Source: Bacteroidota bacterium
Lineage (GTDB): Bacteria; Bacteroidota; Bacteroidia; Bacteroidales; P3
Direction: 5' to 3'
Assembly (NCBI GenBank): GCA_017860275.1
Contig: JAFNAQ010000002.1
Span: forward strand, 25,089-57,088
DNA length: 32,000 nucleotides
Shown: one piece after another, positions 1,051 through 22,607 of the stretch
Layout of the letters: every line of letters starts with the position of its first letter
Numbering within the stretch: position 1 is the stretch's first letter
Translations under genes and position numbers: made by a program
The notes under the pieces: generated by a model
What the model was told of the DNA's origin: nothing
Seen by the model: the letters and a program-made list of their open reading frames with translations, nothing else
The model's database searches: none

Positions 1051-1060
1051 ATATTGTAGG

Positions 1061-2640: not shown

Positions 2641-3516
2641 ATGAAAGGTATAGTATTAGCAGGAGGTTCAGGCACGAGACTCTATCCAATAACAAGAGGT
2701 GTAAGCAAACAATTACTTCCAATTTTCGACAAACCAATGATATTTTATCCAATCTCAGCACTTATGTTAGCAGGGATAAGGGATATTCTAATAATATCAA
2801 CACCAGAAGATTTACCAGGATTTAGAAGACTCTTAGGTTCAGGTGAAGACTTTGGAGTTAGATTTGAATATGCAGAACAACCATCACCAGACGGATTAGC
2901 GCAGGCATTTATCATAGGAGAAAAATTTATTGGTAATGACTCTGCATGTCTTGTTTTAGGAGATAATATCTTCTATGGTCAAGGATTTAGTAATACCTTA
3001 GAAGAAGCATTGAAAGATGCAGAAAAAAATAATATGGCAACAGTATTCGGATACTATGTCAATGACCCAGAACGCTATGGAGTAGCAGAATTTGATTCAA
3101 ATGGTAAGGTGTTGTCAATAGAAGAAAAACCAAAAGAACCAAAATCAAATTATGCAGTAGTGGGACTATATTTCTATCCAAACAAGGTTGTAGAAGTAGC
3201 AAAAAATATCAAACCATCAGCAAGGGGAGAGTTAGAGATAACAACAGTAAACCAAGAATTTCTAAAGCAAGAAGAACTAAAGGTTCAACTACTAGGAAGA
3301 GGTTTTGCATGGCTTGACACGGGCACACACGAATCACTATCCGAAGCCTCAACTTTTATAGAAGTAATAGAAAAACGACAAGGACTAAAAGTAGCATGCC
3401 TTGAGGAGATAGCTTTTACCAAAGGTTGGATAACCAAGGAAAAACTTATACAAGTAGCGACTCCAATGCTCAAAAATCAATACGGACAATACCTTTTGGG
3501 ACTAGTTAAAAACTAA
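2641..3516 (+). CDS. rmlA: Glucose-1-phosphate thymidylyltransferase
   Basis: 291 aa with N-terminal [18 protein letters not shown] and RmlA-like sequence throughout. Confidence 0.95.
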
Positions 3517-3638
3517 AAGGTAAAAACTAAGAACTAAAAGTAGAAAGTGAAAAGTGAAAAACCCACGATTTGCTTTTAGATAATAAAAATAGTCGCATTG
3601 CGAACTTTTCACTTTTAATTTTAAACTTTTCACTTTAT
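3517..3638. repeat. Intercistronic spacer bracketed by inverted GTGAAAAG/CTTTTCAC word repeats
   Basis: aaagtgaaaagtgaaaaa (3544-3561) is matched by aacttttcacttttaattttaaacttttcacttt (3603-3636). A small palindrome tcgca-t-tgcga sits at 3593-3603. Confidence 0.7.
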
Positions 3639-4715: not shown

Positions 4716-4737
4716 GGGCGAACCTGTGTGTTCGCCC
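4716..4737. other. GC-rich hairpin immediately after the rmlB stop, with no U-tract
   Basis: gggcgaac-ctgtgt-gttcgccc forms an 8-bp stem starting 1 nt after the stop and is followed by aaaac. Confidence 0.4.
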
Positions 4738-4751
4738 AAAACTATTTATAA

Positions 4752-6182
4752 ATGAGTATAAAGCATAAAACAATTTATGGATTATTTTGGAGTAGTATAG
4801 AACGTTTCTCCTCACAGATAATTCAATTTGTAATTGGAATAATAATTGCACGCCTATTAGCACCAACAGACTATGGGCTAATAGGTATGCTTGCAATTTT
4901 CCTTGCTATATCTCAATCATTTATCGATAGTGGTTTCTCAAATGCACTAATCATTAAAAAAAACAGAACAGAGGCAGACTTTTCTACAGTATTTTATTTT
5001 AATATATTTGTAGGACTATTCTTCTATATAGTATTATTTTTCACCTCTGGCTTAATAGCCGATTTTTATAATTCCCCAATATTAGAGAACCTCACAAAGG
5101 TAGTAGGGATAACATTGTTTATTAACTCCCTAACCGTTGTTCAAAGGGCAAAGCTAACAATAGTTGTAGACTTCAAGACTCAAGCAAAGGCATCAATCAT
5201 TTCAGTAATAATATCTGGAATTATTGGAATATGGATGGCGTACTCCGGCTATGGAGTATGGGCATTGGCATATCAATCTGTTGCAAATGGCTTAGTAAAT
5301 ATGATAATGATTTGGGCATATTCAAAATGGAAACCTAAAAGAATATTCTCATGGACATCATTTAGGGAACTTTTCTCCTTTGGCTCAAAACTTTTATTAT
5401 CAGGGCTTATAGATACAATTTATAAAAATATTTATACTATAGTAATTGGGAAAAAGTTTTCTGCACATGATTTAGGATTTTATACACGTTCCGACCAATT
5501 GGCACAATTCCCCTCATCCAATATTTCAAATATATTCTCAAGAGTTATATTCCCAATCCTAAGCAGTATACAAACAGACGATGACCGCTTGCAAGATGTT
5601 TACAGAAAATACCTAAGACTTTCAGCCTTTATTATCTTTCCATTAATGGCAGGATTTGCAGCATTAGCCTCTCCATTTATTAATCTTCTACTAACACCCA
5701 AATGGGATGGAGCAGTTTTGATTCTTCAAATACTTTGTTTTGCCTATATGTGGTATCCAATACATTCCATCAATCTCAATCTTCTTCAAGTAAAAGGACG
5801 TTCCGATCTGTTTCTTCGATTAGAAATAATAAAAAAAATCATAGGTTTCACAATACTATTAATCACAATTCCAATGGGAATAATTCCAATGTGTATAGGG
5901 TTAGTAATCAACTCAATTATTTGTTTAACAATAAATACTCATTACACTGGAAAACTTATTAATGTTGGATTTGTTAAACAAATGAAAGACCTCTTACCAA
6001 CACTATTCTACTCCACAACGATGAGCGTTATAGTATGGTTAAGTATAATGTTGGTAGATAGTAATTTATTAAAATTATTACTAGGATTTGTGATAGGTAC
6101 AGTATACTATTTTGGAATAGCATATATATCAAAATCTAAAGAGATACACGAGATTCTTTCAATAATTAAACCTAAGAAATAG
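4752..6182 (+). CDS. wzx: Polysaccharide/O-unit flippase (MOP superfamily, Wzx-like)
   Basis: 476 aa with about 12-14 TM helices. Its N-terminus is typical of polysaccharide biosynthesis (PST) proteins and it sits in a sugar-nucleotide operon. Confidence 0.75.
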   Translation: MSIKHKTIYGLFWSSIERFSSQIIQFVIGIIIARLLAPTDYGLIGMLAIFLAISQSFIDSGFSNALIIKKNRTEADFSTVFYFNIFVGLFFYIVLFFTSGLIADFYNSPILENLTKVVGITLFINSLTVVQRAKLTIVVDFKTQAKASIISVIISGIIGIWMAYSGYGVWALAYQSVANGLVNMIMIWAYSKWKPKRIFSWTSFRELFSFGSKLLLSGLIDTIYKNIYTIVIGKKFSAHDLGFYTRSDQLAQFPSSNISNIFSRVIFPILSSIQTDDDRLQDVYRKYLRLSAFIIFPLMAGFAALASPFINLLLTPKWDGAVLILQILCFAYMWYPIHSINLNLLQVKGRSDLFLRLEIIKKIIGFTILLITIPMGIIPMCIGLVINSIICLTINTHYTGKLINVGFVKQMKDLLPTLFYSTTMSVIVWLSIMLVDSNLLKLLLGFVIGTVYYFGIAYISKSKEIHEILSIIKPKK

Positions 6183-6194
6183 ATAAAGAAGGCT

Positions 6195-7307
6195 ATGGAA
6201 GAAAAAAAAGTAATAACAGTAACTAGTCCATTATTTCCAAAACTAGAAGAATTTATACCCTATTTAGAAGAAATTTGGACGAATAAGTGGTTAACAAATA
6301 ATGGAGATTTTCATCAAAGATTAGAAAAAGAGTTGGCAGAATATTTAGGAGTAAAACATCTATCATTATTCTCAAATGGAACACTCGCTCTTATTACAGC
6401 ACTTCAAGCCCTAAGAATAACAGGAGAGGTAATAACAACACCCTATAGTTTTGTAGCAACAACACATTCCCTTTGGTGGAATGGAATAAAGCCAGTCTTT
6501 GTCGATGTAGAACCAAATACATTCAATATTGACCCAGAGAAAATTGAGGCAGCCATAACTCCAAAAACTACTGCAATTATGCCAGTACATGTCTATGGCA
6601 ACCCATGCAATATTGAAAGAATTCAACAAATTGCCGACTCATATAATCTAAAAATCATCTATGACGCAGCCCATGCCTTTGGGGTAAAGAAAAACGGAGT
6701 ATCCGTTTTAGAATATGGAGACTTATCAACACTAAGTTTTCATGCCACAAAAGTATTCTCCACAATAGAAGGAGGAGCAATTATTTGTCACGATGAGAAA
6801 ATGAAACGTCATATCGATGACCTTAAAAACTTTGGATTTAGAGATGAAACAACCGTTGTTGCGCCAGGAATAAATGCAAAACTCAACGAAGTTCAAGCAG
6901 CCTTTGGACTAGCAACACTATCTAAGGTCGATGATGCAATAGCTCATAGAAAGTTAATAGCCGATACCTATAGAGAAGGTCTTAGAGAAACAAAAGGAAT
7001 CTCTTTTATCGACGATTTAGAAGGAGTAAGGCATAATTATGCATACTTTCCAATATTTGTAGACCAAAAGCTATATGGAAAAACAAGAGACGAGCTCTAT
7101 TTCGCAATGCAAAAAGAAAATATATATGGAAGAAGATACTTCTATCCACTAATCTCTGAATTCTCAACCTATAGAGGATTACCCTCATCAAAAAAATCTC
7201 ATCTTCCAACAGCCAATAAAGTAGCAGAACAAGTTATCTGCCTTCCAATCTATGCCGATTTAGAAATCCAAGATGTAAAAAGAGTAATTGACTTTATTAA
7301 CAAATAA
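6195..7307 (+). CDS. DegT/DnrJ/EryC1/StrS-family PLP aminotransferase (dTDP-4-keto-6-deoxyhexose 4-aminotransferase type)
   Basis: 370 aa with the family motifs DAAHAFG and SFHATK (PLP lysine). It lies downstream of rmlAB. Confidence 0.85.
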   Translation: MEEKKVITVTSPLFPKLEEFIPYLEEIWTNKWLTNNGDFHQRLEKELAEYLGVKHLSLFSNGTLALITALQALRITGEVITTPYSFVATTHSLWWNGIKPVFVDVEPNTFNIDPEKIEAAITPKTTAIMPVHVYGNPCNIERIQQIADSYNLKIIYDAAHAFGVKKNGVSVLEYGDLSTLSFHATKVFSTIEGGAIICHDEKMKRHIDDLKNFGFRDETTVVAPGINAKLNEVQAAFGLATLSKVDDAIAHRKLIADTYREGLRETKGISFIDDLEGVRHNYAYFPIFVDQKLYGKTRDELYFAMQKENIYGRRYFYPLISEFSTYRGLPSSKKSHLPTANKVAEQVICLPIYADLEIQDVKRVIDFINK

Positions 7308-7311
7308 ACCA

Positions 7312-8001
7312 ATGAAACTCGGAATAATGCAACCATACTTCATGCCATACATAGGCTATTTTCAACTGATGAAAGTAGTCGATAAATATGTAATATATGA
7401 CGATGTAAACTATATAAAAGGAGGTTGGATTAATAGAAACAATATACTTATCAACTCAGAAAAAAGATTATTCACTATAGCATTAGATGGGGCAAGTCCA
7501 AATAAGAAAATAAATGAAATTCTTATCAAAGATGATTTCACAAAATTTCTTCGAAGCCTAGAATTATCATACCATAAAGCACCCTATTTTGAACAAGGCA
7601 TATCATTAATGAGAGATATATTAAAGTTCGAAGATAAGAATCTATCCCTTTTTATTGGTAATAGTTTTAGAGCTATATCTAATTACTTGGATTTCAATAC
7701 CGAGTTTCTATACTCCTCAAAAATAGAAAAAGATAATGAACTAAGAGCAGAAAAAAAGGTTATATCAATATGCAAGAGCCTTGGAGCAAGTGAGTATTAT
7801 AATGCAATAGGAGGTAAGGAGCTATACTCGAAAGAGAATTTTGAAACAAATGGATTAAAGCTTCACTTCCTAAAAACAAACCAAATTGAGTATAAACAAT
7901 TTGGTAATGTGTTCGTACCCAATTTATCGATAATCGATATATTAATGTTTAACTCCAAGGCTGAAATAAACCAGTTTTTAGACAATTATACATTAGAATA
8001 A
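7312..8001 (+). CDS. WbqC-like family protein (biochemical function unknown)
   Basis: N-terminal MKLGIMQPYFMPYIGYFQLM resembles the WbqC family. ATG 7312 is preferred over track start 7288, which overlaps the previous gene. Confidence 0.6.
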   Translation: MKLGIMQPYFMPYIGYFQLMKVVDKYVIYDDVNYIKGGWINRNNILINSEKRLFTIALDGASPNKKINEILIKDDFTKFLRSLELSYHKAPYFEQGISLMRDILKFEDKNLSLFIGNSFRAISNYLDFNTEFLYSSKIEKDNELRAEKKVISICKSLGASEYYNAIGGKELYSKENFETNGLKLHFLKTNQIEYKQFGNVFVPNLSIIDILMFNSKAEINQFLDNYTLE

Positions 8002-8029
8002 GAATCAACTAAACCTAAAGAATCCTATT

Positions 8030-9163
8030 ATGAATGTACATATTTTACCAGAAGATAAGTTTACCCAATATGCACGTAAGTTATTCGAAAAATACTATCC
8101 AAAAGAAAACCTCTATGTAGTAAACACCTCAGATATTAACAATCTAAAATATCTTTCGCTAACAGACGATTTTTTGTTCCTCGACCTAATGAACGAAAAC
8201 TCTTTATCTATAATAGAAGAGAAAGCAAACCATCAAATAGAAAATATATTTGTACACTACCTAAATAAACCCCATGGAGACGCAGCATTAATACTTAAGC
8301 ATAAATACAATTCAAAACTATACTGGATACCCTTTGGAGTAGACCTATACCCAATCTTAAAAGATAAGAAAAAGTACATACTCAATGACTACCCAATAAA
8401 GCCATGTAAAGAAAGGTTTACATGTAAACTAATACGCCAAAGAATAAAAGATTGCATAAAAAAAATAATAGGAATAGACTATACATATTTCTATCGATTT
8501 GTAGAACATTGCGATTATTTCTGTTTCTGGGACATATACGACTACGAGCTATTAGTTAATAATTTCCATACAAAATGCAAATTCAAGTTCTTTGCATATA
8601 ACGAAGAAGTATTGATACCAATAATAGAAAACGCCCAAAAGACCAACACAATAATAATCAATAATAGTGCATCACCCTCAGGCAACCACCTAAGCGTAAT
8701 GCGCAAACTCTTGCATATAGATAAAGAAAAACAATTCGATATAATCCTTCCACTAAGCTATGGAGACGATTGCGTAGTAAAACAAGTAACCGAATATGCC
8801 AACAAATACTATGGCAATAAAACAACCATCCTCAAAGACTTTATACCACTAGAGCAGTACAACGAAATATTATCAAAAACCTCAGTAGCTATATTTGGAA
8901 ACCGTAGGCAAGAAGCAGCAGGCAATATATTTATGCACATGCGCTTAGGCAATAAAGTCTTTCTAAGAAAAGAAAACAATATCTATCGCTTAGTAAAAGA
9001 GTGGGGAGGATACGTCTATTGTTTCGAAAAAGAACTCAACACAATAGAAGACCTACTAACCCCATTAACCCAAGAACAAATACAAAAAAACCGTCAAGTA
9101 GTAGAACAAAAATTTTCCATTCAAAGTGAAAAGAAATATATGCAAGAATTGTTTGCAGATTGA
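8030..9163 (+). CDS. WecF-like (GT56) 4-amino-4,6-dideoxyhexose transferase
   Basis: 377 aa. The stretches NNSASPSGNHLSVMRKL...PLSYGDD...FGNRRQEAAGNI resemble E. coli WecF GNSGDRSNEHIAALRAV...PMGYP...FARQQGIG from memory. The context matches an ECA-like module. Confidence 0.55.
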   Translation: MNVHILPEDKFTQYARKLFEKYYPKENLYVVNTSDINNLKYLSLTDDFLFLDLMNENSLSIIEEKANHQIENIFVHYLNKPHGDAALILKHKYNSKLYWIPFGVDLYPILKDKKKYILNDYPIKPCKERFTCKLIRQRIKDCIKKIIGIDYTYFYRFVEHCDYFCFWDIYDYELLVNNFHTKCKFKFFAYNEEVLIPIIENAQKTNTIIINNSASPSGNHLSVMRKLLHIDKEKQFDIILPLSYGDDCVVKQVTEYANKYYGNKTTILKDFIPLEQYNEILSKTSVAIFGNRRQEAAGNIFMHMRLGNKVFLRKENNIYRLVKEWGGYVYCFEKELNTIEDLLTPLTQEQIQKNRQVVEQKFSIQSEKKYMQELFAD

Positions 9164-9298
9164 TAAAACATAAAGTTCTAGTGTTAAAAATAATCCTGAT
9201 TAACCATAAAAATAGGAGTATATTATAATAATACTTCGAAAAAAAAATAAAAATAGAAGAAAAAAGGTTAATCAAGTTAATATTATTAATTATTTCCC

Positions 9299-9306
9299 TA
9301 CATTTG
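9299..9306 (+). promoter_or_regulatory. TAnnTTTG -7 box upstream of the AlbA_2 gene
   Basis: TACATTTG lies 80 nt upstream of ATG 9386. Confidence 0.35.
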
Positions 9307-9318
9307 CAATACCAAAAA

Positions 9319-9356
9319 CCACGCCAGTAACATAAAATTACATGTAACTGACGTGG
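9319..9356. promoter_or_regulatory. Imperfect 15-bp inverted repeat (operator or 5'-UTR hairpin)
   Basis: ccacgccagtaacat ... atgtaactgacgtgg pairs at 13 of 15 positions with an 8-nt loop. It lies between the putative promoter and the start codon. Confidence 0.4.
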
Positions 9357-9385
9357 CTTTGCCATTAGAGAAAACAAAATAATCA

Positions 9386-10765
9386 ATGGAAACCTCATTG
9401 TTTGCAATTCCAAAATCAGAAGGATTAAATGTAGAATTCAAATCCTCGTTCAATATTTCTGTAATAGAAACATTGGTTGCTTTTGCAAATAGTAAAGGAG
9501 GGAAAGTATATATAGGAATAAAAGACGACTTAAAAGCAAAAGGAGTCATTATATCTCAAGAAAGTGTACAAAATTGGATAAATGAAATAAAGTCTAAAAC
9601 AGAACCGTCATTAATCCCAGATGTTGAAATACTAGAAAAAGAAGATAAGAAAATAGTTGTATTAAGTGTTTCTGAATATCCAATAAAACCAATTTCTCTA
9701 CAAAATAGGTTTTATAAAAGAATAGGGAACTCAAACCATTTGATGAATGTTAGCGAGATTGCAGATGAACATCTAAAAACATTAAACACAAGCTGGGATT
9801 ATTACATAGACCCAAATCATAAAATTGAAAGCATATCCCTAACAAAAATAGAAAACTTCATTAATAAGATAGAAAAGAAAAATGGTATAGAGATAAAACT
9901 ATCACCAATTGACTTTCTTAAAAAACTAGAATTAATTCGAGAAGAAAAATTGACATTTGGAGCTTATTTAATGTTTTGTGAAGATAATAATCTGATAACA
10001 GATATTCAAATAGGACGATTCAAAAGTGAAATAACAATAATAGACAACTTATCCATATCAACAGATATATTTTCAGAGGTAGATGAATTGATTTCTTTTA
10101 TCAAAAAACATCTGATGATAGAATATATAATAACTGGAAACCCTCAAAGAACAGAGAGATTTGACTATCCATTAGAAGCAATAAGAGAAATAGTAATTAA
10201 CATGATAGTCCATAGAGATTATAGAAGTACATCATCATCAATAATAAAAATTTATGACGATAGAATAGAATTTTATAATCCAGGTAAAATATACGGAGAT
10301 ATAAATATTAGTGATATAATTTCAGGGAATTATATATCACAAACAAGAAATAAACTAATAGCAAAATGCTTTAAGGAAGTAGGGTTAATAGAAAAATATG
10401 GATCAGGAATAAAAAGAGTAATAGAACTCTGCAGAGATCATGGAATAAAAGACCCAGTTTTTGAAGAACAATCAAATGGATTTGTAGTAAAACTATACAA
10501 AAATATAATATCAGAAAAGAGTACGGAAAAGAGTACGGAAAAGAGTACGGAAAAGAGTACGGAAAAGAGTACGGAAAAGAGTACGGAAAAGATCTTGGAA
10601 TTAATAAAAGCAAACCCTAAGATAACAACAATAGAATTAATGCAAGAGACAGGACTATCTCAAAAGGGAATAGAAAAAAATATTTCAAAACTAAAAGAAG
10701 AAAACCAAATCAAAAGAGAAGGTGGAAGGAAAACAGGACATTGGAAGCTAAAAGCTAAAAACTAA
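9386..10765 (+). CDS. AlbA_2 (Schlafen-like) + HATPase_c_4 + C-terminal wHTH protein, the family often mis-annotated as 'RecG-like' or 'transcriptional regulator'
   Basis: N-terminal EGLNVEFKSSF...LVAFANSKGGKVYIGIKDD is the AlbA_2 signature and REIVINMIVHRDY...IEFYNPG is HATPase_c_4-like. The C-terminal ILELIKANPKITTIELMQETGLSQKGIEKNISKLK looks like a wHTH. Confidence 0.7.
   Translation: METSLFAIPKSEGLNVEFKSSFNISVIETLVAFANSKGGKVYIGIKDDLKAKGVIISQESVQNWINEIKSKTEPSLIPDVEILEKEDKKIVVLSVSEYPIKPISLQNRFYKRIGNSNHLMNVSEIADEHLKTLNTSWDYYIDPNHKIESISLTKIENFINKIEKKNGIEIKLSPIDFLKKLELIREEKLTFGAYLMFCEDNNLITDIQIGRFKSEITIIDNLSISTDIFSEVDELISFIKKHLMIEYIITGNPQRTERFDYPLEAIREIVINMIVHRDYRSTSSSIIKIYDDRIEFYNPGKIYGDINISDIISGNYISQTRNKLIAKCFKEVGLIEKYGSGIKRVIELCRDHGIKDPVFEEQSNGFVVKLYKNIISEKSTEKSTEKSTEKSTEKSTEKSTEKILELIKANPKITTIELMQETGLSQKGIEKNISKLKEENQIKREGGRKTGHWKLKAKN
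10514..10592 (+). repeat. 12-bp tandem repeat x6.5, in frame (EKST)n
   Basis: gaaaagagtacg occurs six times without a mismatch (10514-10585), plus a partial seventh unit. It encodes EKSTEKSTEKST... between the HATPase-like and wHTH regions. Confidence 0.95.
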
Positions 10766-10774
10766 AAGTGAAAA

Positions 10775-10968
10775 ACGGTATCGCCAAACTTTTCACTATT
10801 AACTATTAACTTTTCACTTAATATGGCATCGCCCAAACTTTTAACTTTTAACTTTTAACTATTCACTACCCTGCTTTTACCTTTTTACTTGCTTTTCACT
10901 GCTTTTCACTCATCACTCTTAACTTTTCACTTAATACGGTCTTGATTTTTGCAACTTTGTATCAAGAC
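10775..10968. repeat. Full-length mosaic intergenic repeat (left copy), inverted relative to copies at 27723-27823 and 28891-29027
   Basis: 10852-10946 is the exact reverse complement of 28914-29008 (95/95 by hand alignment). 10775-10874 matches the reverse complement of 27723-27823 with 3 differences. The copy contains GGCGAT(G/A)CC cores and the hairpin gtcttgat-N14-atcaagac (10939-10968). Confidence 0.9.
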
Positions 10969-11043
10969 ACCCGAAGACCAAAGGTCGAGAGCCACGAAGT
11001 GAAAGTTGATAACAAAACGGAATAAAATAAAAAAATAAAAAAA

Positions 11044-12309
11044 ATGGATATAAAGATAGCAGTGATCGGTTTAGGTTATGTAGGCCTACCGCTTGCAAGG
11101 TTGTTCTCAACCAAATACTCAACCATAGGTTACGACATAAATAAAGCAAGAGTAGAGCGCCTAATGCAAGGCGTAGACGAAACCTTAGAAGTAGAAGACT
11201 CATTGCTTCAAGAAGCAATAGAAAAGCATAACTTTATCTGCACAACCAATCTTGATGCAATAAAAGAATGTAACTTCTTTGTAGTAACAGTTCCAACTCC
11301 AGTCGATAAACATAATAACCCAGACCTAACACCACTATACAAGGCATCCGAAACAGTAGGAAAGGTAATCAAAAAGGGAGATATAGTAGTGTATGAATCT
11401 ACCGTTTATCCAGGAGTAACAGAAGAAGAATGCTTGCCAGTAGTAGAAAGAATCTCAGGATTGAAATACAACCAAGACTTTTTCGCAGGCTACTCACCAG
11501 AAAGAATAAACCCAGGCGACAAAGAACACACAGTAGAAAAAATCCGCAAAGTAACTTCAGGCTCAACACCTGAAATAGCTACGATAGTAGACGATGTATA
11601 TAACTCAGTACTAATAAACGGAACACATCTAGCATCATCAATCCGAGTAGCAGAAGCATCGAAGATAATAGAAAACTCACAAAGAGACGTAAACATAGCC
11701 TTTATGAACGAGTTAGCAAAGATATTCAACGCAATGGGTATAGACACTAACGACGTAATAGAAGCAGCAGCATCGAAATGGAACTTCATTAAGCTAAAAC
11801 CAGGCTTAGTAGGAGGACACTGCATAAGCGTAGACCCATACTATCTAATCCAAAAAGCACAGATATATGGAGTCCTTCCAAGAATAATGTCCGATGCAAG
11901 ACGCCTCAACGACAATATGGGAGAATACGTAGCAAACCGTGTAATAAAACTAATGAACAAAAAAGGAGTAGTTGTAAAAGATGCAAATATCCTAATCTTA
12001 GGAATAACATTCAAAGAAAACTGCCCAGACATACGCAACACAAAGATAGTAGATATACACTCAACCCTAAGCGAGTACACAAGCAATATCACAATCTTCG
12101 ACCCATGGGCAAACAAAGAAGAAGTAAAACACGAATATAACGTAGAAATTACCAACATCCTACCAAAAGAAAGATTTGATGCTATTATTCTTGCAGTAGC
12201 ACACAATGAATTCTTAGAATTAAACCTAACAACTTTAAGAAAAGATAATAGTGTATTGTATGATGTAAAGAACATCTTACCAAAAGAAATGGTAGACGGA
12301 AGATTGTAA
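11044..12309 (+). CDS. Nucleotide-sugar dehydrogenase, TviB/WbpO/Cap5O-type (UDP-N-acetylhexosamine 6-dehydrogenase-like)
   Basis: 421 aa with the N-terminal Rossmann motif IAVIGLGYVGLPLA and the catalytic region GGHCISVDPYYL typical of this subfamily. Confidence 0.85.
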   Translation: MDIKIAVIGLGYVGLPLARLFSTKYSTIGYDINKARVERLMQGVDETLEVEDSLLQEAIEKHNFICTTNLDAIKECNFFVVTVPTPVDKHNNPDLTPLYKASETVGKVIKKGDIVVYESTVYPGVTEEECLPVVERISGLKYNQDFFAGYSPERINPGDKEHTVEKIRKVTSGSTPEIATIVDDVYNSVLINGTHLASSIRVAEASKIIENSQRDVNIAFMNELAKIFNAMGIDTNDVIEAAASKWNFIKLKPGLVGGHCISVDPYYLIQKAQIYGVLPRIMSDARRLNDNMGEYVANRVIKLMNKKGVVVKDANILILGITFKENCPDIRNTKIVDIHSTLSEYTSNITIFDPWANKEEVKHEYNVEITNILPKERFDAIILAVAHNEFLELNLTTLRKDNSVLYDVKNILPKEMVDGRL

Positions 12310-12347
12310 TTTAAAATTTATAATTTACAATTTAAAAGTTGAAGAAA

Positions 12348-12470
12348 ATCTTAGCCGTAGCCCATAACGAGTTCCTAGAACTAGACCTACGCTCAATGCT
12401 AAAATGTAGTGGAGTACTATACGACGTAAAAAACATCTTACCAAAAGAAATGGTTGATGGAAGATTGTAA
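12348..12470 (+). pseudogene. 3'-terminal remnant of a divergent dehydrogenase allele (40 codons + stop)
   Basis: Translates ILAVAHNEFLELDLRSMLKCSGVLYDVKNILPKEMVDGRL*. It differs from the intact gene end at 23 of 40 codons, 15 of them synonymous. Confidence 0.9.
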
Positions 12471-12508
12471 TTAAAAATTTATAATTTACAATTTAAAAGT
12501 TGAAGAAA

Positions 12509-12631
12509 ATCCTAGCCGTAGCCCATAACGAGTTTCTAGAACTAGACCTTCGCTCAATGCTAAAAGAAAACGGAGTATTATATGATGTAAAAAACATCTT
12601 ACCAAAAGAAATGGTTGACGGAAGATTGTAA
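12509..12631 (+). pseudogene. Second 3'-terminal dehydrogenase remnant
   Basis: Translates ILAVAHNEFLELDLRSMLKENGVLYDVKNILPKEMVDGRL* and is close to the first remnant. Confidence 0.9.
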
Positions 12632-12668
12632 TTTAAAATTTAAAACTTACAATTTAAAAGTTGAAGAA

Positions 12669-12686
12669 GGCGGAAGATTGGAATTT
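12669..12686 (+). pseudogene. Micro-remnant of the dehydrogenase stop region
   Basis: ggcggaagattggaattt matches gacggaagattgtaattt, with the stop mutated. It is flanked by the same spacer words. Confidence 0.5.
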
Positions 12687-12721
12687 AAACTTTTAAACTT
12701 AAAATTTAAAAGTTGAAGAAA

Positions 12722-12862
12722 ATTCTAGCAGTAGCACATAATGAATTAAAATCTTTAAACCTTAAAGAACATCAAAAACAATTATCAGTATTGTATGATG
12801 TAAAATCAGTAACGCTAAAGGAATTAATTGTCGAAATACATAAAACTAAATACTATAAATAA
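12722..12862 (+). pseudogene. Fourth, strongly divergent dehydrogenase 3' remnant
   Basis: Translates ILAVAHNELKSLNLKEHQKQLSVLYDVKSVTLKELIVEIHKTKYYK*. Its stop overlaps the ATG of the next ORF (TAATG). Confidence 0.8.
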
Positions 12863-13551
12863 TGAAGTTTGACGAATATAATATTAAAGCAAGAATTTTA
12901 CCTTCAATTATAATTTTGATACCTATATTGCTTTTTTTTAATAATTGCAAAATTGATAATATTCAAGTTGTTTTTAATAATCTATTAAGTGTAAAAATAA
13001 TTGGAAATGTTACTCTGTCTATTGCTCTACTATTTTTATTAGTGCAAGTTAATAGATATATTGGTAAGTATATTTTTGAAAAGAGAATGTATAAAAAAGA
13101 GCTGGACATGCCTACAACAATTTTTTTATTATATAGTAATTCCGAATTTTCTAAGGAATATAAAAACCGATTGAGAAAACAAATAGAAAATGATTTTTTT
13201 ATCATTTTACCAGATGAACAATTAGAAAATACAAACTTATTAGAAACAAAAAAAAGAATAATAGAAGCTGTTGGATTAATAAGACATAAAGTAAAAAATG
13301 GAAGGCTACTTTTACAGCATAATATCGAGTATGGTTTTTTTAGAAATTTTATAGGCGGTTCTATAATAGGTTTATTAATTTCTGCATTTAATATTTTTTA
13401 TTTTTACATTATCAATGACAAGTTAATATTTGGCATCAATATTGGATTATCTAGTCTATTTGCTTTACTTTTTATATTTCATCGTCCAATAATTATTAAT
13501 TTAGGTAATCAATATGCAAAAAGATTATTTCAAGAGTACTTAGCAAAATAA
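12862..13551 (+). CDS. Hypothetical 4-TM membrane protein with a ~100-aa charged central domain
   Basis: 229 aa with two N-terminal and two C-terminal hydrophobic helices. I recognise no family. The start is coupled to the preceding remnant. Confidence 0.6.
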   Translation: MKFDEYNIKARILPSIIILIPILLFFNNCKIDNIQVVFNNLLSVKIIGNVTLSIALLFLLVQVNRYIGKYIFEKRMYKKELDMPTTIFLLYSNSEFSKEYKNRLRKQIENDFFIILPDEQLENTNLLETKKRIIEAVGLIRHKVKNGRLLLQHNIEYGFFRNFIGGSIIGLLISAFNIFYFYIINDKLIFGINIGLSSLFALLFIFHRPIIINLGNQYAKRLFQEYLAK

Positions 13552-13567
13552 TTAAACATAAGTAATA

Positions 13568-14512
13568 ATGATTAAAATACATTTTATAAATGTTGGACAT
13601 GGAGACTGCATTGTAATTGAGTTTTGTGATAAATCTAGAATAGCAGTTGTAGATATAAATATGTCAAAAGAGATGGATAATGATTCGCAAAGTGAAGTAT
13701 TAAATGAATTAAATTCTTATGATAAGAATCATTATCAATCCCTCAATTTTTCAAATAGTCAAATATTTGAAAAAGCGGGTTATAATATCAATCTAACCAA
13801 CCCAATTGATTACATTAAGCAATTGACTAATGGTTCCATATTTAGATTTATTTCAACTCATCCACACCTAGACCATTTATCGGGATTAAGTGAATTAAAA
13901 TCGAGAGTTGGAATATTAAATTATTGGGTTGTTAATAATAAATTATTAGTAAATAGTTCCAATTTAAGCAATAGTCAAAATGAAGATTGGACTTTATATA
14001 AGAAGCTTAGAGATACGACAGAGCGAATACAAGATGGAATTACTATTGTAAAACCAAAGGAAGGTTCTAAAAATCAATATTGGATTGAAGATAATATTAC
14101 AATTTTATCACCAAATAATAAATTAGTAAAATTGGCTGAAGAAACGAATAGGCCGAATATAATGAGCTACGTGTTATTAATTAATTATGCTGGTCATAAA
14201 ATAATTTTAGGAGGTGATGCAGAAGATGAAACTTGGGAATATATATATAAAAATCATTCAGATTTAATAAAAGATGTTACTATTTTAAAAGCATCTCATC
14301 ATGGTAGAAACAGTGGGTATTATCAATCTGCAATTGAACTTATGAAACCTAAATACACGATTGTTTCAGTAGGAAAAAAGCCAGATACTGATGCTTCTAA
14401 CAAATATAGAAATTATTGTGAAAATGTATTGTCAACAAGGTGGATGGGAAATATTGTATTTGAAATTCATTCAAAAGGAGAGATAAAGTATTATTGTGAA
14501 CATAATCGTTAG
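13568..14512 (+). CDS. Stand-alone metallo-beta-lactamase-fold hydrolase, ComEC/Rec2 C-terminal-domain type (predicted nuclease)
   Basis: 314 aa with NVGHGD near the N-terminus, THPHLDH (HxHxDH), GGDAED and KASHHGR. This is the motif set of ComEC-like MBL domains. Confidence 0.75.
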   Translation: MIKIHFINVGHGDCIVIEFCDKSRIAVVDINMSKEMDNDSQSEVLNELNSYDKNHYQSLNFSNSQIFEKAGYNINLTNPIDYIKQLTNGSIFRFISTHPHLDHLSGLSELKSRVGILNYWVVNNKLLVNSSNLSNSQNEDWTLYKKLRDTTERIQDGITIVKPKEGSKNQYWIEDNITILSPNNKLVKLAEETNRPNIMSYVLLINYAGHKIILGGDAEDETWEYIYKNHSDLIKDVTILKASHHGRNSGYYQSAIELMKPKYTIVSVGKKPDTDASNKYRNYCENVLSTRWMGNIVFEIHSKGEIKYYCEHNR

Positions 14513-14808
14513 ATGTCAATTTCAATAATTATAATATATCATTTTGTAATATTATATAGAAATATTTCTAAGTAAAGTTTAATGAATTGGTAGTAGATTC
14601 ACATTCAAAGTTATCATTTGGAGTATATTATTTAAATAATCAATTTGTTCTAAAGAATCATTGGAAATTGAAATAATATACAATGATAGAAATTAAAAAC
14701 TTTCAGCAATAAACAAATACTGAATGAATCCAAAGCTAACTATCATATTTTATCTATACATATTAAAATATCAGAAAAAGACTGATATTATTAAATTAAT
14801 AATGCTTA

Positions 14809-16050
14809 ATGTCTATTCGAAAAAAACTCTCATATAATCTTTTAATTCAGGCAATAGGTCCTATTCTATCTTTTCTTACTATTTTTTTAATTGCAAGGAT
14901 TGGTGGACCCAAAACACAAGGTTATTATGCTAGTATATCTGCATGGATTAATTTTGCTGTAGTTGTTGGGATATTTGGGTTTCCCCAAAGCTTCATCTAT
15001 TTAATCAATAAGATGAATACCTCTCCTAAAATTTTGATTAAGGGGTCATATTTTTATTCTATTTTATTTTTATTACTATTTATACCTGTTATTTTTGTAT
15101 TAATAAGTAATAATCTTATTAATAGTATTGTAATTAGTACTAATATTCAAGTTTTTATTTTAGGTGTACCAATAGCAATACTAATCCTTCATGGTTTATT
15201 AAGAGGAATATATTTAACTTATAATCAAAGTATTTTATTTGCTATTTTTTCAATTTTGCCAGCTTGTATTCTTTTCTTATTTGTGTTTATTGGTTTGATT
15301 TTTAAATATCTTAATTTTCAATTGATATACCTCATTTCATCTATTCCATTATTAGTCATTATTATTTTAATGATGAGACCTCTGGTGAATGATAATAAAA
15401 ATAATGATTATATTAAAAAAATATCTTGGAAAATATTATTTAATCATGGAATAAATACATTTTTACAGGCTTTGTTTTTAGCATCACAACCGATAATAGC
15501 GTATTGGATAATCAATAAATATATTGGGGGAACTATTGAAATTGGTTATTTTAATTTAGGATTATTTTTAGTACAAGGATTATTAGTTCCAATAAGTATG
15601 ATTGCACCATTACTATTTGAACATTGGACAAAAAATAGTAATTATAGATCAATAGTAAAAATAAATAAATTCAAATTTTTTATTTTAGAGTTCATTTTGG
15701 GTTGTTTATTAGCCCTCTCTTTACAATATATAATTCCAATAATTTTTGGATTTGAGTACATAAAATCAATAAGAGTTGCTCAAATTCTAATAATAGCTAC
15801 TCCAATAATTTTTCATACTAGAATACTAATACCAGCAATTCATTCTAAAGGTCATCCTATTATTAATACTTATACTGGCTTCTTAAGATTAATTCTATTC
15901 GTTATTATATCTTATACATGGTTGAAATTAGTTGATCATGGATTAACTGGTTTAGCAATAGCTTGGTCATTGTCTGAGCTTATTGTTGCTGTAATATCAA
16001 TTATTTTATTTAATAAATTATTTAAAGATGAATATTTATATATTACTTAA
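14809..16050 (+). CDS. wzx: Second oligosaccharide flippase (Wzx-like, MOP superfamily)
   Basis: 413 aa with about 12 TM helices, very AT-rich, and followed by acetyltransferase and polymerase genes. Confidence 0.65.
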
Positions 16051-16600
16051 GAATATTTTGTCACTAATTATTTCATATACATATTATTTAATAGGGAATA
16101 TTAGAGCTAGTTTGCTTGGTGTTAAATTAGGAAGAGGAGCTAAAGTAAGCCCAAAATCTAAAATAAAAAATGCTTACTATATAGGAAATGCAACAATAGG
16201 TTCATCAGTCATTCTTGGTAATGGAAGTTATATTAATTCAGGTACGATTATGACAGGTGTAATTGGAAACTATTGTTCAATTGGTTATAATGTTATTATT
16301 GGACCTACAGAACATAATGTTGAATTTATTACAACTTCTCCTAGTCATGCTATAAGTCTTGGTTATAAATCCTCTATTGTAGAAAAATTTAAAAATCCAC
16401 CAAATATAGAAGATGAGGTTTGGATTGGAGCAAATGTAGTAATTTTAAAGGGTGTCAATATAGGTAATGGTGCTATTATTGCGGCTGGTGCTGTTGTAAC
16501 TAAAGATGTACCTAGTATGGAGATATGGGGTGGTGTACCAGCAAAATTTATAAAGAAGAGAGGGATTAAATATAACAATTATGCAGATGGATGTTTATAA
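16028..16600 (+). CDS. Left-handed beta-helix (hexapeptide-repeat) O-acetyltransferase
   Basis: [49 protein letters not shown] is a typical LbH acetyltransferase C-terminus. The ORF overlaps the previous gene by 23 nt. Confidence 0.85.
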
Positions 16601-17960
16601 TCAATTTTTTTCACTTATAGGATTAATCTTTTATATATTTAGCATATTTATATCTATCTTACTTGTTTCATCAAGTAAAAAGGATAAATACTCATTTAAA
16701 AATTTAACACCGATTTTTTTTATTTTAATTGTTGCACTATATGTATTGCCACTGTCACTTTTTAATTTTTCTCAATCCAATCCAATAGGAGATATTAGTC
16801 CTCAATTTTTCTCTTTTTCTCAATATATTCCTTATGCAAATATTTTATGTGCTGTTTTTAACATTACTTTTGTGTTCTTTTATAAAAAATTCACATTGTT
16901 TAAATGTTATTCAATGACTGTAAATACACAAAATAGAATAAAAAGATATGAATATTATATTATTTTTCTATTATTAATAATTTCTATCTTTATGCTTTTT
17001 CAATTAAGTAGAGAAGTTGGTGGTTTTCTTAACTTAATATTGTCTGGTTATGGAGTTACTAATCTATTTGTTGGTAAAAATCATTATGCAGTAGGTTTTG
17101 AATGGATAGTTTCATTAAGTATTATTTTATGGGGTAATGTATTATCAATAAAAAATAAAAAATATATATACATATACATGGTATTAATACTTATACTTTC
17201 TATTATTTTCTTTATCATGGGTAGAAGAGCTGTGTTGGTAATACTGATAGGAACTTCGGTGCTTTTATATTATCAACTGTACAAACGAATAAGTATTTTT
17301 AAATTATTATCTTTGTTTTCTCTTTGTTTCTATCTTTTAACTCTTAATGGTTTTTTAAGAGGCGACTCGTATGAAAACTTTTCATCATTATCTACTACCT
17401 TATATGAAAAGAAACAAAATATTGATAATGAGTCTTTGAATTATTTCTATACTTTGACTAGCGGAAATTTTGCAGTGCCCTATGAAACATTACCTCAAAT
17501 TGTTAAATCATTGGGTGTAGACTATAATTTAGGATTGGGTAAATATAGTTTTGGCCCTATTTCTGCTATTATTCCTAATGTCTTGTGGCCAGATAGACCT
17601 TTACCTCTCTCAAATTGGTATATGGCCACTTTTTATGATGTTAAGCGATTAAATGAAGGTCGTCAGTTTTTTTTATTAACTGCACCTTATATGGATTTTG
17701 GTCCAGCAGGAGTAATTTTGATTGGAATATTTTTTGCTTATTTCTGGGCAAATATTGTTAAAAGAGGTATTAAATACCACGATGATGTATTAGTAACTAT
17801 ATTAATAGCATTAGTTTTCTCAAATACTTTGAATATGGTATCTAATGATTTTTTAGGATGGGCAGTCGCTTTTTTTAAAGGTTATGGATTTCCTGTGATT
17901 ATTTTATTATTAATTAGAAAGATCAAATCAAATATTAAATATTATTTAAAGCTACGTTGA
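16581..17960 (+). CDS. wzy: O-antigen/capsule repeat-unit polymerase (Wzy-like)
   Basis: 459 aa with more than 10 TM helices and a large loop in the C-terminal half. It is extremely AT-rich, overlaps the acetyltransferase by 20 nt, and sits next to wzx. Confidence 0.6.
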
Positions 17961-18069: not shown

Positions 18070-18342
18070 ATGACCGACAAAGAAAAAATTGAAAAATTAG
18101 TCTCTATGGAAGTAGAGGATAAGATTAATGATCATTCTGCTGTTACTGTTAATATTTCTATCAGAGAGATTATGGCGGCTAAAGGTTTTTCAGAAGATAG
18201 GATTGAAGAGTTTATTCAAATATTTCAAGAGGAGATAGCAAGACTAATTGTTACAGATAGGGAAAAGTTTGACGATTTTATTAGGGAACTTAGTGGTATG
18301 GATAAAGATTGTAGGGTAGATATTGTTAAGGATGATTGCTAA
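18070..18342 (+). CDS. Hypothetical small acidic protein (90 aa)
   Basis: The ORF has G/T-skewed codon usage like the neighbouring real genes and is helical and acidic. I recognise no family. Confidence 0.45.
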   Translation: MTDKEKIEKLVSMEVEDKINDHSAVTVNISIREIMAAKGFSEDRIEEFIQIFQEEIARLIVTDREKFDDFIRELSGMDKDCRVDIVKDDC

Positions 18343-18668
18343 GATGAATTTCTAATTTTAAATTACAACTTTTAAATTACTCATTATCAACCTAAATATA
18401 TATTTATTTCTAGAAATTTAAAAGCGGTGTTGTTAAGATTATCAGGTATTTAATATTTAGATTAAAAAAAATATTAGAATAAAATTTTCGAATTAAATAA
18501 TAAATTAATTTATTCTCACGTTATATACTAAAATTTAGCGAAATTACCTGCATTTTTAATTATAAATTCAAGCAAAAATATAATTTGAGCAAGAGTTTAT
18601 AGATAAAAACTAAGGAAAAATAAAAATTAACCTTGAATTTTTGAATTAATACTTGATCTAAATACCTC

Positions 18669-18749
18669 AAAAATGGCACTTTTATATGCGAAAAATGGCA
18701 TTTTTGAATATTAAAAGTGGCACTTTTAAACCATGAAAATGGCACTTTT
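18669..18749. promoter_or_regulatory. Array of four 15-bp palindromic sites AAAA(A/G)TG-G-CA(C/T)TTTT at exact 22-bp spacing
   Basis: The sites lie at 18669-18683, 18691-18705, 18713-18727 and 18735-18749, with centres at 18676, 18698, 18720 and 18742. The array ends 54 nt upstream of the HU-like gene. Confidence 0.7.
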
Positions 18750-18802
18750 AGGGTAAAAAGACTTGATGTAAATGCAAAAATGCTTGATTAAATTTTGAAG
18801 AT

Positions 18803-19219
18803 ATGGCAATTAAATACTTTAGACTCAAGAGAAAAATTACAACCAATAGTATTCCAGAGGATAAATACATTGCTGTTATTCAACAAGAAGCTAGAGTTGG
18901 GTTTGAAGAACTTGCGGAAATGATTGAAAAGAAAAGCACCTTGAGTAGGGGAGATATCTTAGGAGTATTTGCTGAAATGGAGACAACGGCTCTTTGGATG
19001 TTGGAAAATGGTCACCCATTAATTTTGAGGCTTTTTGGTTCATATTTTCCTGCAATTGAAGCAACGGCGGTCGATACTCCAGAGGAAGTGACGGTCAAAA
19101 CTATCAAGAGATTTAAATGTATTTATAAGCCTTCGGTTTATATGAAGAAAAGGTTTAAAAAAGTTGAATTTGTGTTAGGAGATAATAGAGTTAGGGAGGT
19201 GCATTATAAAAAAGATTGA
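18803..19219 (+). CDS. Bacteroidetes HU-like (histone-like) DNA-binding protein, long form
   Basis: 138 aa. It shares KY(I/L)A...F(E/K)...MIEK(K)ST(L/V)SRGD(I/T)L...E(M/-)TA...GH...PEEVT..TI with the next ORF, which resembles the HU-fold 'putative DNA-binding protein' family common in Bacteroidales. Confidence 0.65.
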   Translation: MAIKYFRLKRKITTNSIPEDKYIAVIQQEARVGFEELAEMIEKKSTLSRGDILGVFAEMETTALWMLENGHPLILRLFGSYFPAIEATAVDTPEEVTVKTIKRFKCIYKPSVYMKKRFKKVEFVLGDNRVREVHYKKD

Positions 19220-19286
19220 ATAAAAATGCTACATAAATAAGGTGGCAGCTTAATTAAATATAATAATCAACTTAAAATTTCTGCTT

Positions 19287-19694
19287 ATGAAATTTAGAAA
19301 AGTTAAAAAGAATATCCATGTTGGCTATTCTCCTGGTGAAAAGTATTTAGCTCAACCTGTTAAAGGCGAAACAATCGACTTTAAGGCTATGGCTGCAATG
19401 ATTGAGAAATCAACCACTGTTAGTAGAGGGGACACCCTCAATGTGCTTGATGCAATGGCTACTGCTGCAGTAACCATGATAAAAGCAGGTCATAACGTAA
19501 AATTCGATGGTCTTGGAATCTTTGATCTAAAGACTAAGGTTAAGGCAATGAATACCCCAGAGGAGGTAACTGCTGATACCATCGAAAGAATTACAATTGG
19601 ATTTATTCCAACTGTAGAGTTAAAAGACCAAATGAAGTCTGTTTCTATAAGTATTGACCCATACGAAACAGAACCAACACCTCCAACTCCGTAA
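19287..19694 (+). CDS. HU-like DNA-binding protein, tandem paralogue with a Pro/Thr-rich tail
   Basis: 135 aa and clearly a paralogue of 18803-19219. The C-terminus is ETEPTPPTP. Confidence 0.65.
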   Translation: MKFRKVKKNIHVGYSPGEKYLAQPVKGETIDFKAMAAMIEKSTTVSRGDTLNVLDAMATAAVTMIKAGHNVKFDGLGIFDLKTKVKAMNTPEEVTADTIERITIGFIPTVELKDQMKSVSISIDPYETEPTPPTP

Positions 19695-20129: not shown

Positions 20130-21164
20130 ATGATGGAAAAAAAAATATTAGTTGTTGGATATTTTGGATATAAAACTAATCAATTAGATGGTCAAACTGT
20201 AAAGACTAGAAATATATATGAATTATTTTTAAGACAAAATCAAAGAGTTAATTATATAGATACTCAAACTTTAAGATCTGAGGGTTTTATATCATTATTT
20301 AATTCTTTAAAGAAAATAATTACTTGTAATATATTTATTTATTTACCAGCTCATAATAATTTAAAATACTTATTTCCTCTTTTTTTTATATTATCTAAAT
20401 GTTTTAGATTTAAAATTATATATATTGTTGTTGGAGGCTGGTTGGTTGAGTTCATTTCAAATAAACCATTGCATAGATTTTTTTTAAAGAATATTTTTCA
20501 AATTTTTACGGAAAATCAATTAATGAACAGACAATTATCAGAGAAATATAAAATATTTAATTCAACCAAAATACCAAATTTTAGATATGGGGATTTTATT
20601 CCTAAAATAAAAATATTAAACGAGCATAAATTAAAAATAGTTTTTATGGCTCGAATAAATAAAAAGAAAGGTTTAGATATTGTATTTTCAATTGCAGATT
20701 TGATATTAAAAAATAAATACCATAATCAAATAAGTATTGATTTTTATGGGCCTATTAATCAAGAAGATAATGAATATTTTAAATCTAATCTAAATAAATA
20801 TGATTTTATTTGTTATAATGGAGTTATTCAGCCAGATACAATTCCTAATACACTAAATAATTATGATATTTTACTTTTCCCTACTCACTATTATACTGAA
20901 GGTTTTCCTGGTTCTATTTTAGATTCTTATCGCGCTGGTATACCTGTTATAGTTTCAAAATGGAAGCATGCAGATGAATTTGTTATTGATGGTGAAACAG
21001 GTTTTATTGTCCCTTTTGATAATAATGTGGATTATATTTGGTCAAAAATTATATTTATATATAATAATCCAAGAGTTTTATTTGAAATGAAGAATAAAGC
21101 ATATATTGAAAGTTTAAAATATACTTCTGAAGTAGCTTGGGAGATAATAAGTAGTCGATTTTGA
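20130..21164 (+). CDS. Glycosyltransferase family 4 (GT-B, GT1-type fold)
   Basis: 344 aa with the C-terminal EGFPGSILDSYRAGIPVIVSKWKHADEFVIDGETGFIV (EX7E-type motif). It is very AT-rich. Confidence 0.8.
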   Translation: MMEKKILVVGYFGYKTNQLDGQTVKTRNIYELFLRQNQRVNYIDTQTLRSEGFISLFNSLKKIITCNIFIYLPAHNNLKYLFPLFFILSKCFRFKIIYIVVGGWLVEFISNKPLHRFFLKNIFQIFTENQLMNRQLSEKYKIFNSTKIPNFRYGDFIPKIKILNEHKLKIVFMARINKKKGLDIVFSIADLILKNKYHNQISIDFYGPINQEDNEYFKSNLNKYDFICYNGVIQPDTIPNTLNNYDILLFPTHYYTEGFPGSILDSYRAGIPVIVSKWKHADEFVIDGETGFIVPFDNNVDYIWSKIIFIYNNPRVLFEMKNKAYIESLKYTSEVAWEIISSRF

Positions 21165-21290
21165 AATAATTAAAAAATATTTTAGTGGATAACTTTTGAA
21201 TTTTAAAAAGAAATATAGAATTGTCTACTTTATTATTATAAAAATAGCAGTTAAGGTTAATGTAAATTAAAAGAAAAAAATAATAAATAT

Positions 21291-22601: not shown

Positions 22602-22607
22602 ATAATT

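Follow-up and report, generated by a model that had tools for sequence, protein, structure and literature searches.

The window analyzed here, a stretch of 32,000 nucleotides from contig JAFNAQ010000002.1 of the Bacteroidota assembly GCA_017860275.1, is a composite surface-polysaccharide region of two loci (A and B) in an uncultured, low-GC Bacteroidota metagenome-assembled genome (MAG). Its + strand carries all of the genes supported by a Pfam search, and along this strand the synonymous sites switch from A/C-rich on the left to G/T-rich on the right with no change in gene orientation. We favor, with a probability of roughly 0.55, the reading that this flip is a seam between modules of opposite replication-strand history, the locus-B block having been translocated, inverted or transferred. 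A seam is preferred to a replication origin because the reversal has two sharp edges at module borders, DnaA boxes are lacking, the skewed blocks are mobile and, in relatives, bounded, the right-hand gene fucP is not core and a scar lies at the junction. Features found that fit a seam are a step-like change at the borders, retention of the signature in other genomes, a recombination scar at the border and, for the left module, greater similarity across species than is seen for core genes. The second edge of the G/T-rich block is seen in a relative at fcl|OmpA, the window's own species having been followed only to gmd.

According to this reading, the left block would carry a lagging-strand signature matching its flank, the right block would carry the mirror-image leading-strand signature, and the middle, which has no signature, would be DNA imported more recently. 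The two conserved modules would have gained their signatures in opposite orientations relative to replication, and recombination in an exchange-prone region would have set them side by side and co-oriented. The locus-B block may have been translocated or inverted, or may have arrived by horizontal transfer, and a stack of gene remnants at the left module's edge would be the scar. If a piece has moved at all, the right block is the likelier candidate.

Two-Step Reversal of Synonymous Skew

An abrupt reversal of compositional skew, with every gene on the + strand, had been reported in an initial annotation of this DNA and illustrated with base counts for four 60-mers, which are exact on recount. 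The reversal is confirmed as a sign switch at both 4-fold and 2-fold synonymous sites, and the uniform orientation holds for the Pfam-supported genes. On raw counts, the AT and GC skews are +0.19 and 0.00 on the left (133-12309), +0.01 and +0.19 in the middle (12862-23363), and -0.11 and +0.25 on the right (23408-32000). The left + strand, previously described as A/C-rich, is A-rich on these counts but C-rich only at third codon positions, where the GC skew (GC3) is negative in eight of the 11 genes and approximately zero in pyrB and pyrI.

The AT skew at 4-fold sites (AT4), the check on which the reversal was said to depend, does change sign. It ranges from +0.20 to +0.74 in all 11 left genes and from -0.21 to -0.79 in seven of the eight right genes, a KilA-N gene standing at 0.00 (left vs. 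right, Mann-Whitney p=3e-4), and is about zero in 11 middle genes. Neither AT content nor Met and Trp codons affect a second, independent measure for 2-fold sites, defined as T/(T+C) over NNY codons less A/(A+G) over NNR codons; it is negative in 11/11 left genes and positive in all 19 other genes. As the sign change holds at both 4-fold and 2-fold synonymous sites, the flip cannot be ascribed to amino-acid usage. In the low-GC middle, GC skew at 4-fold sites is near zero, and the excess of G over C at third positions there is likely in part an ATG/TGG effect. Intergenic DNA is weakly skewed, with a G+T minus A+C fraction of -0.11 on the left and +0.02 on the right.

A least-squares fit of three segments to 3,191 four-fold sites places the breaks at 12,294|12,300 and 23,431|23,437, with segment means (A+C minus G+T) of +0.49, -0.06, and -0.50. 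The first break falls at the stop codon of the UDP-sugar dehydrogenase gene, adjoining the remnant stack, and the second at the start of a DegT aminotransferase gene. The proposal of a single change-over at the remnant stack is borne out for the first step, but a second step follows after a neutral zone of ~11 kb. Likewise, the region 21291-32000 is G/T-rich as claimed from 23408 onward but neutral at 4-fold sites over 21291-23363, while the G/T-richness ascribed to 18070-19694 is real but mild. The region 12862-17960, described as AT-rich with little skew, has a GC content of 22-30% and an ln(A4/T4) of -0.11 +/- 0.09.

Pooled 4-fold frequencies in the left module (2641..12309) are A.63, C.15, G.05, and T.17, and those in the right module (23408..27585) are A.19, C.06, G.08, and T.66, so that usage in the two is close to mirror-image. 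The right module also resembles the - strand core genes of the same species (T.61, A.27).

The Left Block and Its Flank

The window opens with the core genes pyrB and pyrI and a gene for an EamA-like transporter (133..2451, +; Pfam; MAG protein entries MBP1629380-82), which are moderately A-rich at 4-fold sites (AT4 +0.39, +0.32, and +0.20) with GC skew at these sites near zero. A 33.5-kb contig of a sister strain from another sample (L001 + L104) is 97% identical and collinear from upstream of pyrB to a pair of HU-HIG genes at the head of locus B. Upstream of pyrB in this strain lie four - strand genes whose coding strands are T-rich (ln(A4/T4) = -0.80), whereas the adjoining + strand core genes are A-rich (ln(A4/T4) = +0.77; difference z=9.2). 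Two-fold sites of both the NNY and the NNR type show the same strand effect, and the skew holds in both gene orientations over 4.8 kb beyond the window. Because + and - strand core genes share the + strand bias, synonymous composition on the left follows the DNA strand and not gene direction, which is a replication-type asymmetry. The left module agrees with its own flank.

Relatives were sought in a metagenome scan with pyrB, which gave 80 loci of which only the five with 30-32% GC were informative; in high-GC rumen relatives the skew polarity around pyrB varies. Against the informative relative L034, the left module has 80-90% nucleotide identity (88% for the dehydrogenase and 90% for an rmlB-like gene) and pyrBI 75%. 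In both L034 and a second relative, L037, the rml and dehydrogenase genes have an AT4 of +0.5 to +0.7 beside weakly skewed core genes. From the 88-90% identity of left-module genes against 75% for pyrBI, and from an A/C signature kept beside a weakly skewed core, the conserved modules are judged to be mobile. Homologous blocks keep their signature whatever the host flank, the left type in L034 and L037 and the right type in GCA_002399025.1.

The Right Block and a Syntenic Relative

The L-fucose permease gene fucP (30836..32000, +; 388 of 393 aa in the window) is strongly G/T-rich (AT4 -0.73). It is followed in the same sample by a cytidylyltransferase/kinase-like gene and rhaM (L109), with gmd next in the sister population (L122); all four are on the + strand and G/T-rich, with an ln(A4/T4) of -1.45 for the L109 block. 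fucP is therefore the first gene of a GDP-fucose supply block and not flanking core. Among GTDB species representatives it has no close homologue (those in Sphingobacterium and Bacteroidales MAGs reach 64% at best), and it is absent at the corresponding place of a syntenic relative. The earlier argument that pyrBI and fucP are core genes of opposite signature, and that the pattern is consequently no simple foreign island, fails on these grounds. In the window's species, the G/T-rich block extends at least to gmd (~35 kb), all genes reached there being on the + strand.

The syntenic relative is GCA_002399025.1, for which 48.7 kb of contig DHCV01000007.1 was read (L110, L113, L115, L119). Its order runs from locus-A variable cassettes through small open reading frames (ORFs) and an HU-HIG gene to locus-B variable cassettes, and then through DegT, CapD, sugar transferase, manC, inserted defence-type genes, gmd, fcl, and OmpA to recG and onward; the architecture is common to this genome and the window. 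Leftwards, the relative was followed as far as a DUF4917/defence insertion (L119, L121), short of any pyrBI or dehydrogenase gene. Nucleotide identities to the window's right module are 94%, 80%, and 91%. The variable cassettes of the relative are neutral, while its DegT-to-fcl block, inserted genes included, is strongly G/T-rich and ends abruptly at fcl|OmpA. Ten core genes past this border, four of them on the - strand, are unskewed (ln(A4/T4) +0.15 and -0.02).

Four strains of the relative differ ~10 times more in gmd-fcl than in the core. Comparison of L116, L117, and L118 with L115 (98.7-99.7% identical) gave singletons ~10x denser in L115 5608-8350 than in 8585-20768, which indicates allele import by recombination in the polysaccharide block.

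Synonymous third-position differences give some idea of the direction of change. Between the right module and GCA_002399025.1, 122 sites have A/C in the window and G/T in the relative and 81 the reverse (p=0.005), which suggests, in a comparison made without an outgroup, that the window's right block is relaxing towards the left-type A/C bias. The same test on pyrB against L034 gave 47:27, with the window shifted further to A/C. Together, these shifts suggest that, in this genome, the + strand is under A/C-ward pressure throughout the window.

The Remnant Stack and Intergenic Repeats

The remnant stack (12240..12862, +), delimited by repeat search and alignment, lies exactly at the first skew step. 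It contains three tandem 161-nt units (12240-12722), each formed by the last ~126 nt of the dehydrogenase ORF and a ~35-nt motif, and the remnant ORFs, of 43 aa and 49 aa, are at 12339-12470, 12500-12631, and 12713-12862. The motif is AT-rich and quasi-palindromic (AGATTGTAATTTAAAATTTAnAAnTTACAATTTAAAAGTT), with further copies at 27854 and 30673. Remnants 1 and 2 share substitutions missing from the intact dehydrogenase and hence derive from another allele, so that at least two alleles are represented among these 3' remnants. A dehydrogenase 3' remnant also occurs in the variable region of a strain of the syntenic relative (L121 4605-4633).

Two families of intergenic repeats are oriented oppositely in the two blocks. 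Repeat E1 combines an array of ~11-nt AACTTTTCACT-type units with a CTTGAT...ATCAAG palindrome. Its left copy (10784..10950, +) lies upstream of the dehydrogenase gene, and inverted copies 17-18 kb away in the right block are found downstream of manC (27691..27825, -; 123 nt, 93% complementary to 10784-10906) and at 28910..29025 (-; 116 nt, 97% complementary to 10835-10950). Shorter AACTTTTCACT-type arrays also lie just upstream of rmlA and of the rmlB-like gene and, in inverted orientation, of gmd. The E1 array could be a regulatory site or a mobile repeat. An inversion between the E1 inverted repeats (10.8 kb vs. 27.7 or 28.9 kb) was considered and rejected, as undoing it leaves the skew flip in place.

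Repeat E3 is an imperfect palindrome with two intergenic copies in the window (29083..29260 and 30335..30620, both +). The family is opposite-oriented in the A/C-rich modules of relatives L034 (18492-18691 and 20008-20183), L036 (five copies, 10.9-13.4 kb), and L037 (17605-17762, 18235-18421, and 6156-6319). E3 forms an imperfect hairpin ~130-170 nt long, with compensatory changes in one divergent copy and no match in Rfam. Its folding, with G·U pairs, is better on just one of the strands, the one antisense to the window genes. It resembles an ERIC/MITE-type element peculiar to these polysaccharide loci. As a second marker of polarity, the inverted repeats are suggestive only, since insertion is possible either way round and the copies in relatives are non-independent.

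Seam or Maintained Asymmetry

Several observations weigh against a seam. The right skew is as strong as that of the left module and shows no visible decay; therefore, either the relocation was recent or the skew is maintained in place. The co-oriented order of variable locus A, HU-HIG, and locus B recurs in a relative that differs from the window by 6-20% across their common genes; the juxtaposition is thus of some age. A break in collinearity with relatives was not found: the sister strain is collinear from pyrB to HU-HIG and the relative from the variable cassettes to gmd/fcl. The drift test on the left module against L034 gave no asymmetry (87:97), which weakens the relaxation logic drawn from 122:81 and leaves it less than secure. 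Polymorphic sites of the relative's block show no compositional trend (69 G/T to A/C changes vs. 62 in reverse), as equilibrium predicts. The homologous repeats E1 and E3 change orientation from one block to the other though the genes do not, which a polarity switch in place would also explain, and the flip has an origin-type sign.

A further reading, which we regard as doubtful, is that the opposite skews of adjacent, co-oriented operon modules are maintained in place across several species, by a conserved origin or a local strand-asymmetric process. In its first form, a conserved origin would lie between the two polysaccharide loci and would do so without a canonical cluster of DnaA boxes. 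In its second, a local process of mutation or selection would act with opposite sign on the two modules. The flipped intergenic repeats would be a second marker of polarity in either case.

A chromosomal replication origin between 12.3 and 23.4 kb, with forks running both ways, would make the + strand lagging on the left and leading on the right, with both modules at equilibrium in place and young variable cassettes masking the exact switch point. AT4, GC3, and the 2-fold measure all switch with an origin-type sign between 12.3 and 23.4 kb, the left flank has a true strand effect in both gene orientations, and the two sides are equal and mirror-image in magnitude. The arrangement is common to the sister strain and the relative, polymorphism in the relative's block is balanced, and E1 and E3 flip along with the skew. 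The lack of dnaA is no argument against an origin here because Bacteroidetes oriC commonly lies far from dnaA (PMC4755523). In Prevotella intermedia OMA14, oriC is ~0.5 kb long, has multiple E. coli-type boxes and lies at a GC-skew transition far from dnaA (PMC4755523).

However, the junction (12310-12861) contains zero DnaA boxes (TTATCCACA-type), even at <=2 mismatches, and no intergenic region of the window holds a cluster, there being none with >=2 boxes at <=1 mismatch, in contrast to the several boxes of the P. intermedia oriC. One-mismatch matches in the window number 24 vs. 12 expected, an enrichment that we set aside as a probable compositional artefact, the matches being single sites, mostly in genes, with the excess on the right lying on the - strand and most matches on the strand whose complement is G/T-rich. 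The genome has a GC content of ~30% and the window's intergenic regions are all 68-87% AT, hence AT-richness does not discriminate an unwinding element. The proposal of an origin at the flip keeps its polarity switch and its sign, but the origin itself is not supported by these tests, as there is no box cluster and the change is made in two sharp steps on gene and module borders and not in one switch. Moreover, intergenic DNA is almost unskewed, and the relative's core to the right of the block is unskewed or, if anything, has the weak pattern of the L034 and L037 left flanks. The window's right module drifts to A/C relative to the relative's copy, an origin would not usually be expected within 30 consecutive co-oriented genes, and the prior for an origin within any 32-kb window is ~1%. 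Overall, an origin at this place is unlikely.

Another explanation is a locus-specific process unrelated to fork direction that makes and maintains the opposite skews in place, for which the candidates are strand-asymmetric damage or repair tied to sense vs. antisense transcription, or module-specific codon selection. The relatives' modules are far more skewed than the adjacent core, unrelated defence-type inserts in the relative's block share its G/T skew, and promoter-like palindromes and repeat arrays are oppositely oriented in the two blocks; additionally, the use of per-gene skew as a record of inversion is contested (PMC9098844 against PMC6220195). Nonetheless, transcription-linked deamination predicts a G/T-rich coding strand, the opposite of the left module. 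The variable cassettes of the same operons are neutral, the highly expressed OmpA is not G/T-rich, the left-flank core shows a plain strand effect in both orientations, and no known codon-selection regime yields mirror-image A/C vs. G/T preferences. We rejected an explanation by transcription only, which has the wrong sign in the left module, and one by translational selection, in view of the unskewed OmpA and the mirror symmetry. A locus-specific process of some kind is rather unlikely.

A rearrangement could also have affected the other side: the left block, which is >=17 kb long and extends past the left edge, would then have been inverted or translocated, and the remnant stack would mark its endpoint. 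The stack does sit on the edge of the left block, and block and flank cohere as a unit (>=17 kb) expected to move together. However, the + strand near pyrB is A-rich at 4-fold sites in L034 and L037 too (z=4-5), which makes the orientation long-standing, the sister strain is collinear, and the 47:27 result for pyrB fits an ongoing A/C-ward pressure in place and not relaxation. A moved left block is decidedly unlikely on this evidence. A rearrangement endpoint at the junction, as suggested in the initial annotation, is compatible with the data, but the relatives are collinear piecewise and the left block matches its flank. That annotation had itself named collinear relatives with the same pattern among the conditions that would tell against it; on this criterion, both a replication origin and a recent inversion are weakened.

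Finally, the source is a metagenome-assembled genome, and polysaccharide or repeat sequences that two strains or species have in common could have been joined into a chimeric contig. Independent contigs of this sample are interrupted at repeats (10.5, 22.3, 27.75, and 28.98 kb), with not one of them crossing 10.5-22.3 kb. Set against this, pyrBI, the left module, variable cassettes, and the two HU-HIG genes are joined on the 33.5-kb contig of the other sample, and a 162-kb contig of the relative joins variable cassettes, HU-HIG, locus B, and core, so that every type of junction has been seen independently. An assembly artefact is very improbable.

Comparison With Known Systems

Mosaic O-antigen and capsule loci of the Wzx/Wzy-dependent type have conserved flanking modules and low-GC, serotype-specific cassettes that are exchanged by recombination. 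The window resembles them in its conserved nucleotide-sugar modules, which flank strain-variable low-GC cassettes of wzx, wzy, and glycosyltransferase genes, in the gene remnants at a conserved/variable junction, and in a diversity above that of the core. It differs in that its two conserved modules have strong mirror-image strand asymmetries; we know of no description of such asymmetries in O-antigen or capsule loci, in a literature that was not searched exhaustively.

Per-gene skew was used as a record of orientation history by Merrikh & Merrikh (2018; PMC6220195), an approach criticised by Liu & Zhang (2022; PMC9098844). As in skew discordance from rearrangement or horizontal gene transfer, the window has a block opposite to its neighbors, the change is stepwise at the borders, and homologues keep the signature; unlike such cases, it has no change of gene direction at the seam, no break in collinearity and no decay. 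The window also resembles the P. intermedia OMA14 oriC (PMC4755523) in switching from C/A-rich to G/T-rich along one strand, but it lacks a DnaA-box cluster, has two border steps with a neutral gap, and is barely skewed in intergenic DNA. Unlike at an oriC, the skew in the syntenic relative ends with the gene block.

If the flip is a seam, the region would be a clean example of how synonymous strand asymmetry can date the modules of a mosaic polysaccharide locus and mark their limits, separating long-term residents from recent cassettes and locating exchange. Calling origins from skew in fragmented MAGs also needs caution, as an origin-like flip can arise in an exchange-prone cluster. If the skews are instead maintained in place, an unrecognised type of origin or a local mutational asymmetry would be at work, which would be of wider interest.

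Gene Content of the Window

Sugar-nucleotide, flippase, polymerase-like, glycosyltransferase, and initiating transferase genes were all found in one orientation, as in a Wzx/Wzy-type locus. The Pfam matches behind this assignment are NTP_transferase, GDP_Man_Dehyd, Polysacc_synt_3, DegT, UDPG_MGDP_dh, Glycos_transf_1, Glycos_transf_2, Bac_transf, and ManC. Exact protein matches place the products of the window's genes at MBP1629380-MBP1629411 of the MAG (locus tags H6Q15_273 to about 304). Scans of the window with Rfam and for tRNA genes gave no matches.

The conserved 5' module of locus A (2641..12309, +; Pfam), strongly A/C-rich at synonymous sites, encodes rmlA, the rmlB-like dehydratase, a Wzx-type flippase, a DegT aminotransferase, WbqC, a GT56-like protein, a Schlafen/AlbA_2 protein, and the UDP-sugar dehydrogenase. 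The variable, serotype-type cassette of locus A (12862..17960, +; Pfam), which has no AT4 skew, holds genes for a hypothetical membrane protein, an MBL-fold protein, a second flippase, a hexapeptide acyltransferase, and a Wzy-like polymerase. The last (16581-17960) is a putative Wzy, called from topology and position with no Pfam match. In both the sister strain (L104) and the relative (L119), different genes take the place of this cassette.

Locus B begins with a 90-aa ORF and two HU-HIG DNA-binding proteins (18070..19694, +; Pfam PF18291), a segment with 91% nucleotide identity to sister strain L104, and the equivalent locus of the relative likewise begins with an HU-HIG gene. Its variable part (20130..23363, +; Pfam), comprising GT1, UDP-glucose dehydrogenase (ugd), and GT2 genes, is neutral at 4-fold sites (ln(A4/T4) -0.08 +/- 0.12). 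The conserved 3' module (23408..27585, +; Pfam), whose start is the second skew step, is strongly G/T-rich and encodes the DegT aminotransferase, a CapD-like dehydratase, an initiating sugar transferase, and manC. Two hypothetical genes of 80 and 212 aa follow (27927..28813, +; H6Q15_299 and H6Q15_300 in the MAG annotation), also strongly G/T-rich (ln(A4/T4) -1.59).

The KilA-N domain gene (29474..30289, +; Pfam PF04383) is the sole unskewed gene within the right block and is probably a recent (mobile) insertion. In strain L116 of the relative, a KilA-N gene (147-959) precedes gmd. The relative's polysaccharide loci also hold defence-type genes, namely DUF4917, AAA_15/RloB, HNH plus AAA_15, and two AAA_14/DUF4143 genes (at L119 94-1422, L121 217-3727, L113 16698-19217, and L115 2444-5426), and the locus seems to serve also as an insertion site for genes of this kind. 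Between DegT and CapD in this genome, ~110-nt tandem and dispersed repeats surround a PDDEXK_3 gene (L113 13150-14421, L110 3841-5138) and give many overlapping BLAST self-matches of 85-95%. Within the window, the Schlafen/AlbA_2-HATPase_c_4 gene contains ~eight tandem 12-nt units (GAAAAGAGTACG) at 10502-10609 that encode (EKST)n, and a second assembly of the same sample breaks in this array (the end of L002 being window position 10543).

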